Origin: Sulfolobus acidocaldarius DSM 639
GTDB taxonomy: Archaea; Thermoproteota; Thermoprotei_A; Sulfolobales; Sulfolobaceae
Length of the DNA: 32,000 nt
Direction: 5' to 3'
Assembly: GCF_000012285.1 (NCBI RefSeq)
Contig: NC_007181.1
Location: 2,130,001 to 2,162,000, forward strand
The translations under genes were made by a program, and so were the position numbers. Under the pieces are notes generated by a model that ran no database searches, was not told the DNA's origin, and saw only the letters and a program-made list of their open reading frames with translations. Below are positions 11,912-30,161 of this stretch, one piece after another; the first letter of the stretch is position 1, and the number at the start of each line of letters is the position of its first letter.

Positions 11912-11974
11912 GTATGAAGGTTTTTCTGGCTTCCTCTCCCGCCATAAATGGTGAGGCTTTCCTCATTTTGTAAA
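11912..11974. repeat. Copy 1 of a ~60-nt conserved intergenic element (tandem mini-hairpins and/or a 19-codon micro-ORF)
   Basis: GTATGAAGGTTTTTCTGGCTTCCTCTCCCGCCATAAATGGTGAGGCTTTCCTCATTTTGTAAA aligns with 21202..21258. Hairpins lie at 11941..11952 (GCCA-TAAA-TGGT) and 11953..11964 (GAGG-CTTT-CCTC). Confidence 0.6.
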
Positions 11975-12032
11975 TAAAATATAATTTATTTTATATATGT
12001 ATTACTTTAAATCTAACCCTCTCTAATATAAT

Positions 12033-13856
12033 ATGATGAGCTGGGTTCCAGGCAAAGAGTGGATTGAAAAAAGCAATGTTTATCAATACATGATTTCCAG
12101 GAATATTCCCGATTTAGAGAAATTCCTTGAGTTCACATACAATGAGGCTTTTTGGGATGATTTTGTAAAAAACGTATTGAGTTTAAAATTTGAAAAACCC
12201 TATACGAAAACATTAGACCTAAGCAAAGGTAAACAATGGGCTAAATGGTTTGTAGACGGGAAAATTAATATCGCGGATCAGCTAGAGGAAAGTTCAAAAC
12301 CCTTGGTAAGGTGGATGAACGAAAGAGGTGAAAGTAAGACATTAACGTACAATCAAGTATTATATGAATCAAAGGCTGTTTCCTCATGGCTCAAAAGAAG
12401 ATATAAAAAGGGAGATAGAATTGGCATATATTTACCAATGATACCTGAAATAATTCCCATTTTCTTAGGGATTATCAGGGCAGGAATGATCGTAGTCCCA
12501 CTTTTCTCAGGTTTTGGAAAGGAACCAATAAGAGTAAGACTTGAAGACAGTGAAATGAAAGCTATATTCACTACAGATCTAACCACAAGAAAAGATAAAG
12601 AAATAAATCCGACTGAAAACCTAGAGGACTTTCAAGTAGATAAAATAGTAGTAGAAAGGGGAGGTAAGGCAAAGGTAAACTACATTTCGTATGATGAAGT
12701 TAAAAAGACAGCTGGTGATGGCTTAGAGAAGACCGAATCTGAGGATCCTCTAATGATAATTTACACTAGTGGTACGACTGGAAAACCTAAAGGCTGTGTT
12801 CACGTACATATGGGATTTCCAATAAAGGCTGCAGCTGATATCTATTTCCAGTTCGATATGAAGAATGGTGAATTACTTACATGGATCACTGACCTAGGGT
12901 GGATGATGGGACCATGGTTAATATTTGGTGGAATACTCTTACGTGGTCAAATAGGTCTATATGAAGGCTATCCAGGATTTGACCAAATTTCACATTTCAC
13001 TGAAGATTTTAAACCCGGTATTTTAGGACTTTCAGCTAGCCTTGTTAGATCATTTAAAGGAAGGGAAGGAAAGCTTCAAGTTAGACTTGCAGGAAATACT
13101 GGAGAGCCTATAGATCCAGAGAGCTGGAATTACCTGTATAGACTTATCGACCATAACCCAATAATCAACTACTCAGGAGGAACAGAAATTTCAGGTGGAA
13201 TATTGGGAAACTACGTGATAAAGGAAATCAAAGCGTCGTCGTTTAATGGTCCTTCTCCAGGTACAAAAGCTGATGTTTTCGATGAGTCTGGGAAAAGAGC
13301 ATCGCCAAATACTGAGGGGGAGTTAGTGGTTCTGTCTGTTTGGCCAGGGATGACGAGAGGATTCTGGAGAGATGAGAAGAGATATTTAGAGACATATTGG
13401 AGCAGATGGGACAATGTTTGGGTTCATGGTGACTTGGCTTACTACGACAGCCATGGATATTTTTACATTGTAGGTAGAAGCGATGATACAATAAAAGTTT
13501 CGGGAAAAAGAGTGGGTCCTGCTGAAATAGAGTCTGTGATCAATGCCCACCAGAAGGTGTTAGAATCAGCCTGTGTTGGGATCCCTGATCCATTGAAAGG
13601 AGAGAAAATAATCTGCTTTACGGTAACTAAGGAAGAGATTAATGAGAACGAGTTAATCAACTTCGCTCAGGATAAACTAGGAAAAGCCTTTTCTCCAGAC
13701 CGAATATTTCTTGTTAAGGAACTGCCTAAGACTAGAAATGCAAAGATTATGAGAAGGCTACTGAGGGCTATAATTCTCGATAAGCCACTAGGAGATATAT
13801 CGTCATTAGAAAACCCAAGTGCAGTTGAGGAAATCAGGAAAGTAGTTAAAGGCTAA
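12033..13856 (+). CDS. AMP-forming acyl-CoA synthetase (acetyl-/propionyl-CoA synthetase-like)
   Basis: It has the YTSGTTGKPKG AMP-binding motif, GDLAYYDSHGYFYIVGRSDDTIKVSGKRVGPAEIE and a C-terminal PKTRNAKIMRR. A TTTAAAT box lies about 24 nt upstream of the ATG. Confidence 0.9.
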   Translation: MMSWVPGKEWIEKSNVYQYMISRNIPDLEKFLEFTYNEAFWDDFVKNVLSLKFEKPYTKTLDLSKGKQWAKWFVDGKINIADQLEESSKPLVRWMNERGESKTLTYNQVLYESKAVSSWLKRRYKKGDRIGIYLPMIPEIIPIFLGIIRAGMIVVPLFSGFGKEPIRVRLEDSEMKAIFTTDLTTRKDKEINPTENLEDFQVDKIVVERGGKAKVNYISYDEVKKTAGDGLEKTESEDPLMIIYTSGTTGKPKGCVHVHMGFPIKAAADIYFQFDMKNGELLTWITDLGWMMGPWLIFGGILLRGQIGLYEGYPGFDQISHFTEDFKPGILGLSASLVRSFKGREGKLQVRLAGNTGEPIDPESWNYLYRLIDHNPIINYSGGTEISGGILGNYVIKEIKASSFNGPSPGTKADVFDESGKRASPNTEGELVVLSVWPGMTRGFWRDEKRYLETYWSRWDNVWVHGDLAYYDSHGYFYIVGRSDDTIKVSGKRVGPAEIESVINAHQKVLESACVGIPDPLKGEKIICFTVTKEEINENELINFAQDKLGKAFSPDRIFLVKELPKTRNAKIMRRLLRAIILDKPLGDISSLENPSAVEEIRKVVKG

Positions 13857-20302: not shown

Positions 20303-21026
20303 ATTTATCCTGTCTTTTGCTCTGTTTTATGGAGTAGCCCCTGTAAAAAGAGGAACTATATACGTTGTAACCTATATGATTACTCCATTAGCGGAACTTT
20401 TCCTAATTTATGTTGTAACAAGAGGGGCATTAATCGGATACGCGATAATGGGGGGATTAGTGGCAATTGTTGCAGGAAATGGAATATCTTTTCTTGCAGA
20501 TTTTGCATTTCTAAGGCTAGAGACTAAAATTCAAGATTTGTTAGTAGCCACAGAAGTCACACCCACAGAGTATATTTTGGGGCTAATGCTCTCTAACTTG
20601 ATTTTCTCGATACCAGGGATAGCACTGTATATTGTTTTAGCTGTTTTGTATAGGTTAGTGAACATTCTAAATATACTTCCAATAGTTTTAGTTCTTGTAT
20701 TGTTACTACTAACAACCTCCTCTATAGGCTTCTTAATAGGAAGTTTCATTCCACATATTAGGTACTCCTGGGGACTGGGTTCAATATTGTCCATATTACT
20801 TACAGTCCTACCGCCAGTATTTTACCCATATTTCCTTATACCTAAAACAGCATTTTATGCCATATTTCCAATACCAACTACTTTAGGTGCAATGATCCTA
20901 CAGGACTTAACAGGACTAATACACCTATCTTCAAATGTCTTATACGGTAGTATAGCATTATTAATTGTGGAGACTGTGATATTTTACTACTTGTCAAGAA
21001 GGTTCAGCAGATGGGTTAGTGCTTAA
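20277..21026 (+). CDS. ABC-2 type transporter permease
   Basis: It is a polytopic hydrophobic protein of about 6 TM segments and overlaps the upstream ATPase gene by 26 nt. The start is uncertain. Confidence 0.8.
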
Positions 21027-21152
21027 GTGTTTTACCTCATATTTTATGAAAACGTAACCACATATAGGACAACTTTTTGTTATAGTTTTTCCCTCTCGAC
21101 TCACCTTTATTTCAACTACCTTCTTACACTTTGGGCATTCTCTCCTTGCCAT
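20994..21152 (-). CDS. Small zinc-ribbon protein (52 aa), not in the ORF track
   Basis: The hand translation is [52 protein letters not shown], with CPxC-x18-CPxC. The ATG is at 21152..21150 and the TGA at 20996..20994. A TTTATAA box (plus-strand 21178..21184) is centred about 29 nt upstream of the ATG, consistent with a leaderless transcript. Confidence 0.4.
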   Translation of the reverse strand: MARRECPKCKKVVEIKVSREGKTITKSCPICGYVFIKYEVKHLSTNPSAEPS

Positions 21153-21177
21153 GACCACTGAATTATATGGAAATTAC

Positions 21178-21184: not shown

Positions 21185-21201
21185 GTGTGAGACAGCTACG
21201 C

Positions 21202-21258
<57 letters not shown>

Positions 21259-21304
21259 CAGGGATATATCCTGGGAATCTGATGAAAATATCAGTAGTTG
21301 TGGA

Positions 21305-30070: not shown

Positions 30071-30161
30071 TGCGGCCGCCGGGATTCGAACCCGGGATTG
30101 CTGGCTCTCCTCCCTGACTGATGGAAGGCCAGCGTCCTAATCCAGACTAGACGACGGCCGC
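30071..30161 (-). tRNA. tRNA-Gly (anticodon UCC) with a 15-nt intron at the canonical 37/38 position
   Basis: The hand-folded cloverleaf is: acceptor GCGGCCG/CGGCCGC, discriminator A, D-arm GUCU...GGAC, anticodon stem CUGGC/GCCAG, loop C-U-UCC-A then intron then A, variable loop CAAUC, and T-arm CCGGG-UUCGAAU-CCCGG. It totals 91 nt, which is 76 nt plus 15 nt of intron. No CCA is encoded. Confidence 0.9.
30107..30121 (-). other. tRNA intron (UCAGUCAGGGAGGAG)
   Basis: Anticodon-loop C32-C35 can pair with intron G10-G13 (GAGG) to form a 4-bp helix. Two 3-nt bulges (C36 A37|U1 and A14 G15|A38) flank it, each with a splice site after its second nucleotide, which is a bulge-helix-bulge geometry. 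The outer helix is minimal. Confidence 0.75.

Follow-up and report, generated by a model that had tools for sequence, protein, structure and literature searches.

The window analyzed here is a stretch of 32,000 nucleotides of the Sulfolobus acidocaldarius DSM 639 genome (positions 2130001-2162000 of a single contig of 2,225,959 bp with 36.7% G+C), and it includes two short intergenic stretches, copy 1 and copy 2, that resemble each other. Copy 1 is flanked by a pirin gene and an AMP-binding acyl-CoA synthetase gene, while copy 2 is flanked by convergent ABC-2 permease genes and is located upstream of a 54-aa zinc-ribbon ORF on the minus strand (20994-21158). This gene context agrees with the original prediction, and so does the likeness of the two stretches in the same orientation: about 47 nt of copy 1 (window 11926-11973) align with copy 2 (21210-21256), and no chance match is expected in the window for a 35-nt degenerate pattern built from both copies. 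The coordinates of both copies and of their parts are listed in Table 1. No tnpB gene was found in the window.

The 54-aa ORF has two CxxC knuckles and is encoded on the strand of copy 2, with its start 57 nt downstream of the right end of this copy, or 52 nt if counted from the listed GTG at 21158. The window also encodes a tRNA-Trp gene on the minus strand (30071-30161; Rfam, ARAGORN), whose length of 91 nt implies an intron.

Table 1. Features of the two window copies, organization of the family unit, and units with an exchanged guide.
Feature	Position	Strand	Description
Copy 1 unit	11926..11969	-	44 nt owing to a private 1-nt insertion; AAAATGAGG-AAAG-hairpin-AGGAAGCCAG
Copy 1 TTAC target	11970..11973	-	Transposon-adjacent motif; flanks the left end
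Copy 1 AAAG guide	11957..11960	-	Directly 5' of the hairpin foot
Copy 1 hairpin	11936..11956	-	CCTCACCA / TTTA / TGGCGGG-a-G; degraded, with an A.C mismatch and a 1-nt bulge
Copy 2 unit	21210..21252	-	43 nt; GTAAGGAGG-AAAG-hairpin-AGGAAGTCAG
Copy 2 TTAC target	21253..21256	-	
Copy 2 AAAG guide	21240..21243	-	
Copy 2 hairpin	21220..21239	-	Intact, 8 bp; CCTCGCCC / TTTA / GGGCGGGG, one T.G pair
Family unit		tnpB-sense	TTAC, then AAAATGAGG-AAAG-(CCTCGCCa TTTA tGGCGGGG)-AGGAAGTCAG; strand opposite to that of the original prediction
Unit hairpin		tnpB-sense	CCTCGCCaTTTAtGGCGGGG, between AAAG and AGGAAGTCAG
Unit part 1			Left-end linker after the TTAC target
Unit part 2			Left-end guide tetranucleotide AAAG
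Unit part 3			Single subterminal hairpin, TnpA-recognized; last stem of the tnpB 3' end/omega-RNA region
Unit part 4			10-nt right-end tail, terminating in the cleavage site TCAG
Unit with GAAC guide	G017:C9:11985-12032		
Unit with GAAC guide	G030:C1:1679467-1679514		
Unit with GAAC guide	G030:C1:1167377-1167424		

A dispersed family of single-hairpin units

The two stretches had been described as a two-copy element of about 60 nt, and neither the number nor the length held. BLAST with copy 1 identified 21 further places in the S. acidocaldarius genome, and an nhmmer profile built from the BLAST matches identified 48 places at E<0.01, with a family copy number of about 40. Within the window, a search with model R1 identified just two units, copy 1 (72.1 bits, E=1.7e-16) and copy 2 (72.4 bits, E=1.4e-16), both on the minus strand, and copy 1 could be aligned with 32 other units. 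The alignment of 33 short copies defines a conserved block of 47 nt (TTAC and the 43 nt next to it): at one column the information content climbs from background to above 1 bit, 49 columns later it drops back, and outside TTAC...TCAG it stays at background. The GTATGAA sequence upstream, which had been included in the element, falls outside this block and is a chance similarity. The four TTAC columns carry T, T, A, and C in 29, 26, 29, and 23 of the 33 units, respectively, and AAAG is kept in 27-32 of them.

The 43-nt unit is composed of 13 + 20 + 10 nt. From its sequence, the unit can be read as a left end and a right end fused through a common hairpin, with a single 8-bp hairpin (including a T.G pair) doubling as left and right. 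The unit has no terminal inverted repeats, as its ends read AAAATG... and ...GTCAG. We therefore discarded a classical MITE as an explanation, both for the lack of terminal inverted repeats and for the lack of target-site duplications at the empty sites described below.

The T.G pair of the stem, found in 21 of the 33 copies, corresponds to a C.A mismatch on the strand read by the original prediction, and the structure therefore belongs to the opposite, tnpB-sense strand. On that strand, the 8-bp stem has 79.5% of its cells paired, as compared with the slightly lower 76% of shuffle controls, and about 20% of the stem cells are unpaired over the 33 copies. The minimum-energy single-stranded DNA fold of copy 2 is exactly the 8-bp stem on the minus strand, with a weaker and interrupted stem on the plus strand, and the fold of copy 1 in S. 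acidocaldarius no longer recovers the main stem.

Paired differences between the two copies, which had been put forward as the mark of selection on RNA or DNA structure, do occur in the form reported: copy 1 closes its loop with an A-T pair where copy 2 has C-G, and a further pair is G.T in the former and G-C in the latter. Among the 33 copies, however, covariation is essentially restricted to the loop-closing pair (AU 10, CG 7, UA 2, unpaired 9), and the second pair cited (GC 12, GU 8, AU 3, unpaired 6) shows mostly one-sided transitions, which points to decay. Since full-length left and right ends have differing apical pairs, the A-T versus C-G difference between the window copies represents inherited variation. 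The pairing pattern thus fits variants that came from different parent elements and then decayed, and not selection on the two window loci. What stands of the structural claim is that the hairpin is a structural nucleic-acid element and not a product of chance; the apparent compensatory change is a family polymorphism of the loop-closing pair. An adjacent GAGG-CTTT-CCTC hairpin, taken as a second and invariant structure, dissolves in the alignment: its pairs do not covary, the main 8-bp stem uses the CCTC as its foot, and the AAAG guide makes up the loop. We also considered chimeric loop-closing pairs as a signature of left/right recombination and rejected them, given that full-length left ends in the sister species (G039) already carry C..T and A..G apical combinations.

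Homology to IS200/IS605 ends and a proposed target/guide rule

Some copies of the family extend into longer conserved sequence whose opposite strand is the C-terminus of an ORF. This ORF, tnpB1 (genome 405914-407224), harbors the Pfam OrfB_IS605 and Cas12f1-like TNB domains and is the only full tnpB1 gene in S. acidocaldarius. Its 3' end (...GGGGAAC-CCTCaCCCTTTAGGGCGGGG-AGGAGGTCAG) matches the hairpin and tail of the unit. In turn, the left end of the truncated tnpB2 (genome 417762-418889), which reads TTAC followed by AAAATGAGGAAAG, the hairpin CCTCGCCTTTTAAGGCGGGG, and TAAAGG, matches the linker, guide, and hairpin of the unit. In other genera, the unit hairpin bounds complete tnpA+tnpB elements encoding a 134-139-aa Y1 transposase and a TnpB of about 430 aa, with a left end of the form TGAC...CAAG-hairpin-TAAAG and a right end of the form GAAC-hairpin-AGGAGGTCAG. 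The sister species has at least four full 1.33-kb elements with a TTAC/AAAG (a-type) left end, the right end GGAAC-CCTCGCCCTTTAGGGCGGGG-AGGAAGTCAG, and a distinct TnpB of about 380-400 aa. There are also intermediate sizes, namely gene-less forms of about 355 bp and two-hairpin forms of about 105 nt, and both S. acidocaldarius and the sister species have such forms. In size, the two-hairpin forms are a class intermediate between the full element and the unit of 43 nt; two mini-elements of the sister species (L154:200-305 and L156:200-305) consist of a left hairpin, about 35 nt, a right hairpin, and a tail.

The Y1 transposase domain (PF01797) was found in 19 of the 47 Sulfolobaceae genomes, with no match above the cut-off in S. 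acidocaldarius, in the sister species, or in the unit-rich genomes G030 and G024. Since S. acidocaldarius lacks the transposase, none of the steps can be attributed to a resident enzyme.

In IS608, each cleavage site is recognized by the tetranucleotide 5' of a hairpin foot: TTAC by the left guide AAAG, and TCAA by the right guide GAAT (PMC3597680, PMC3201880). Based on these two pairs (TTAC/AAAG and TCAA/GAAT), we derived a pairing scheme, which is our own and not a quoted rule, in which site base 1 would pair with guide base 2, site base 2 with guide base 1, and site base 4 with guide base 4. Four site/guide pairs fit this scheme: TTAC/AAAG, TGAC/CAAG, TGAT/CAAA, and TCAG/GAAC at the right end. 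In seven genomes, we counted 24 copies with TGAC and CAAG, 23 with TGAT and CAAA, 4 with TGAC and CAAA, and none with TGAT and CAAG. [quoted passage not shown] As for the unit, its left end fits the scheme (TTAC with AAAG) but its right end does not, as TCAG would need GAAC, which only the long elements carry.

A few rare units combine the left linker (TTAC followed by AAAGTGAGG) with the right-end guide GAAC in place of AAAG (Table 1). A crossover upstream of the guide would produce such units.

Distribution of the units and filled and empty sites

A covariance model of the unit identified matches in 39 of 47 Sulfolobaceae genomes, in all 14 genera, with 42 matches in S. acidocaldarius, 92 in the sister species, 100 in G024, and a maximum of 112 in G030. 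Over the 47 genomes, copy number showed no positive relation to the presence of a chromosomal Y1 transposase. All 43 copies in S. acidocaldarius are located outside real genes (gene positions being ORF-based calls made in the present analysis) in a genome that is 87% coding.

The sister species is 93-94% identical to S. acidocaldarius over the two window regions compared, and we performed a presence/absence comparison of 40 of its 92 unit loci. At 19 of these 40 loci, the flanks aligned without a break and S. acidocaldarius had a gap of at least 35 nt; another 5 loci were shared, and the remaining 16 were without an ortholog or complex. In the alignments that we inspected, TTAC-unit-flank in one species faces TTAC-flank in the other, with a gap of about 43 nt directly 3' of TTAC, and in several cases (e.g., L081, L082, L095, L096, and L097) the gap is exactly 43 nt, with no target duplication. 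Units private to S. acidocaldarius were also found. IS200/IS605 elements are known to insert 3' of a tetranucleotide, and their excision restores the site (PMC3201880, PMC3597680); the filled and empty sites observed here match this behavior. The window stretches correspond to the terminus of an insertion sequence, an outcome that the original prediction had itself named as incompatible with its reading. They share homology with both the left and the right ends of IS200/IS605 elements, belong to a set of about 40 intergenic copies, and have relatives whose presence/absence alleles are tied to the TTAC junction.

Both window copies occupy orthologous sites in the sister species, and they therefore predate the split of the two species. 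There, 3 nt are missing from one stem arm of copy 1, and copy 2 carries an insertion as well as substitutions. We read both as old, neutral relics that are gathering stem-breaking changes, for which a cellular function is not needed.

Next to copy 1, a segment of about 100 nt that runs from inside the copy to the start codon of the acyl-CoA synthetase gene (window 11942-12045) is 100% identical between the two species, whereas the remainder of this intergenic region differs by about 6-7%. This suggests that a promoter or operator under constraint adjoins the copy 1 relic and extends partly into it.

The orientation of the S. acidocaldarius units along the chromosome is clustered, with 13 consecutive units on one strand at 857-1436 kb and 8 on the other at 1816-2151 kb, and a runs test over all 43 copies gave P of about 0.01, as against 0.16 when restricted to the 33 short ones. 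A replication-direction bias was considered and rejected: judged by eye, the orientations do not fit a simple three-origin replichore model, for which we used what we take to be the origin positions of this genome, and the clustering is only mild.

Origin of the units, alternative explanations, and related systems

Taking into account the homology, the architecture, and the target sites, both window stretches very probably belong, as old and decaying members, to a dispersed family of single-hairpin units of 43 nt that derive from IS200/IS605-type elements. Within this explanation, we infer that most units arise by the collapse of full elements, and this is the origin that we favor. IS200/IS605-type elements are the tnpB/omega-RNA elements moved by TnpA, a single-strand "peel-and-paste" Y1 transposase. 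A full element (a 1.33-kb tnpB-only insertion sequence or a shorter derivative) would insert at TTAC, after which recombination or slippage between its left and right hairpins, which are 20-nt direct repeats, would remove the interior. The product would be a "solo hairpin", comparable to the formation of a solo LTR, that lacks the right-end guide GAAC and that, by the IS608 rule, should be immobile.

Several observations point to such a collapse. The 13 + 20 + 10 nt of the unit are exactly what a crossover between the two hairpins would leave, and linker variants of the units in the sister species (ATGATG, AGAATG, and ATAACG) mirror those of its full elements. The intermediate sizes exist, as do the rare units with a left linker and GAAC. 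Moreover, the genomes richest in units lack a gene for the Y1 transposase; collapse would require none there, and a crossover within the hairpins would explain why the units have no right guide. On the other hand, eight 355-bp sites and two full-element sites were checked, and none of them turned out to have a long element in one species and a 43-nt unit in the other. In addition, the 355-bp derivatives of the sister species are 2-11% divergent from one another and uncollapsed, there are about 10-50 units for every long element, and G006 has about 24 near-identical 39-nt units for which no long left end matched at the mismatch level searched. These last three observations would fit units that multiply as units.

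It is accordingly possible, if on balance rather doubtful, that the unit of 39-45 nt is itself mobile, as a minimal, single-hairpin, non-autonomous IS200/IS605 derivative that is excised and inserted by a Y1 TnpA supplied in trans by a full element, a plasmid, or a virus. Apart from the numerical excess and the G006 set, this is what the presence/absence alleles of about 43 nt at TTAC in both lineages, the sets of identical units in the sister species, and the strong conservation of TTAC, AAAG, and TCAG would suggest. The spacings from the hairpin to the ends (13 nt on the left and 10 nt on the right) can likewise be compared with the 19 and 10 of IS608 (PMC3597680, PMC3201880). Against mobility of the unit, its sole guide AAAG mismatches TCAG at two of the three positions that are informative under an IS608-type rule, while the right end of the parent carries the fitting GAAC, and the genomes richest in units have no Y1 transposase. 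A TnpA dimer, furthermore, normally binds two hairpins. Without its right guide, IS608 no longer forms transpososomes robustly (PMC3201880). Were the units nevertheless to move, they would be the smallest transposable elements known, setting a new lower limit to transposon size and providing a minimal substrate for single-strand transposases. They would also be an archaeal counterpart of, and an evolutionary intermediate to, bacterial REP elements, and would imply that one hairpin and one guide tetranucleotide can serve both transposon ends.

The G006 units, which are spread over many contigs, have a shorter linker (TTAC followed by AACTGAAAG). A hairpin variant of this genome, CGCTC...GAGCG, with a doubly changed base pair, is present both in the units and in the right ends of its long elements.

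Readings that give the units a task in the cell fare worse than the relic interpretation. Recruitment by the host, as for bacterial REP sequences, would make them protein-binding sites, stabilizers or terminators of mRNA 3' ends, or promoter-proximal operators, with the hairpin under selection. The retention of both window copies in the sister species and the identical segment beside copy 1 would agree with this, and a report on Borrelia describes free-standing IS605 stem-loops whose conservation is at the RNA level (PMC2775950). We nonetheless regard it as improbable. The units show no preference of orientation or side relative to neighboring genes (16 of 33 lie in sense downstream of a gene and 19 of 33 in sense upstream of one), the stems decay, in the sister species as well as across the family, and the strictly extragenic location, which could be taken as a sign of function, is expected from purifying selection against insertions into genes. 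Still less probable is that the units are orphan omega-RNA genes or small RNAs, transcribed in the tnpB sense and used by resident TnpB proteins. It is true that the guide is preceded in the tnpB 3' end by a last stem and a tail, and that the unit contains both. In a relaxed Rfam scan, the minus strand of window 21200-21292, which overlaps copy 2, matched HgcC (which we take to be omega-RNA-like) with 24.5 bits and E=5e-4 against a threshold of 50, and copy 2 had a further sub-threshold match on the same strand to the last 23 positions only (152-174) of the model for sot0042, a sense-overlapping transcript of an IS1341-type tnpB. Omega-RNA-type transcripts of S. acidocaldarius tnpB genes are documented as well (PMC12817955, PMC12558985). 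However, of a scaffold that takes up at least 160-220 nt in long elements, a unit keeps only about 30 nt, it has no promoter within it, and no Rfam family reaches threshold: at gathering thresholds the tRNA was the sole match in the window, and relaxed scans of both loci gave sub-threshold matches only. With such scores and a window free of tnpB, membership in TnpB omega-RNAs, HgcC, or sotRNAs was rejected. A C/D-box sRNA, a tRNA fragment, and an att site were dropped on the tnpB homology, with tRNA-Trp as the only ARAGORN hit, and the supplements of the literature yielded no transcript at the coordinates of the window copies.

There is next to nothing to recommend the proposal that copy 1 encodes a 19-codon micro-protein (MKVFLASSPAINGEAFLIL; 11914..11973) of which copy 2 is a frameshifted relic. 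One frame on the strand of the original prediction (DFLPALKGEAFL...) is indeed free of stops in 26 of 33 units. Yet the unit contains no start codon, the ATG of copy 1 (11914) being part of the non-conserved flank, and what serves as a stop codon is simply TTAC, the target, in reverse reading. The copy 1 frame is open only through the private 1-nt insertion, as the consensus has the TAA of the loop in frame; it is open in 10 of 33 units and closed in 23. The 43 nt of the unit are, in addition, accounted for as transposon ends. The relic reading implies that the window copies are transposon debris, not a structured RNA or a micro-gene, and that they should not be annotated as a gene.

One of the closest parallels is IS608 of Helicobacter pylori, the paradigm of the IS200/IS605 family. 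Like this element, the units insert 3' of TTAC without target duplication and have a subterminal hairpin instead of terminal inverted repeats, the AAAG directly 5' of the hairpin foot equals the IS608 left guide, and the right cleavage site is 10 nt 3' of the hairpin. As in the IS200/IS605 family at large, they are associated with tnpB and, in other genera, with tnpA. In contrast to IS608, the unit has one hairpin and not two, no gene, no right-end guide, and 43 nt as against more than 1.3 kb, in a genome that has no Y1 transposase. The units also resemble the palindrome-associated transposable elements (PATEs) of Haloquadratum and Geobacillus (Meers et al. 2023 preprint), which are non-autonomous and gene-less, keep the ends, are dispersed in intergenic DNA, and often encode an omega-RNA. 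The PATE-like forms of about 355 bp and 105 nt in S. acidocaldarius and its sister species keep both end hairpins, and the 43-nt unit represents a further reduction to a single common one. The IS605 stem-loops on Borrelia plasmids (Delihas 2009, PMC2775950) are end hairpins found apart from a transposase gene, some with stem-keeping base-pair changes, although they occupy few loci, as separate left or right hairpins, and have no left/right fusion architecture, target-site evidence, or empty sites. As an analogy for the origin, solo LTRs are single repeats left after recombination between direct terminal repeats and outnumber intact elements; by comparison, the repeat of the unit is just 20 nt long and hairpin-forming, it belongs to a DNA transposon, and the recombination step is our reconstruction.

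The bacterial REP/REPIN-RAYT systems share with the units short extragenic palindromes (20-40 nt for REP) in tens to hundreds of copies, a conserved tetranucleotide 5' of the hairpin, and an evolutionary tie to Y1 transposases of the IS200/IS605 type. They differ in that no RAYT or Y1 domain is present in the unit-rich genomes, no doublets of alternating orientation (BIME/REPIN) were seen, the 5' motif is AAAG in the units and GTAG in REP, and the parent insertion sequence of the units is still identifiable. Lacking a Y1 domain, S. acidocaldarius has no RAYT gene flanked by inverted REPs, and a literature search for REP/RAYT in Sulfolobus retrieved no account of such units. In the papers searched, REP/RAYT systems were reported from bacteria only.

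The tnpB genes of S. acidocaldarius and their omega-RNA-type transcripts (PMC12817955, PMC12558985), gene-less PATE derivatives (Meers et al. 2023 preprint), and the free-standing Borrelia stem-loops (PMC2775950) have already been published, and full-text literature searches found neither a description of single-hairpin fused-end units nor the consensus sequence. Our analysis adds the distribution across the family, the empty sites, the target/guide covariation, and the a-type parent element. The units record past IS200/IS605 insertions in genomes that are usually considered nearly devoid of insertion sequences. Dozens of natural filled and empty sites define the targets (TTAC, TGAC, and TGAT) of archaeal elements together with the matching guide tetranucleotides, and the family illustrates how REP-like extragenic palindromes can grow out of transposon ends.

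Finally, two of the full 1.33-kb tnpB elements of the sister species (L151 and L152) have counterparts in S. acidocaldarius at 1552258-1552366 and 942190-942300 that are not a bare TTAC. These sites hold 109 and 111 nt of unrelated DNA, which starts right after TTAC/TTAT and ends in TTAC/CTAC, and these alleles could be the result of a transposase-mediated adjacent deletion between two target tetranucleotides.
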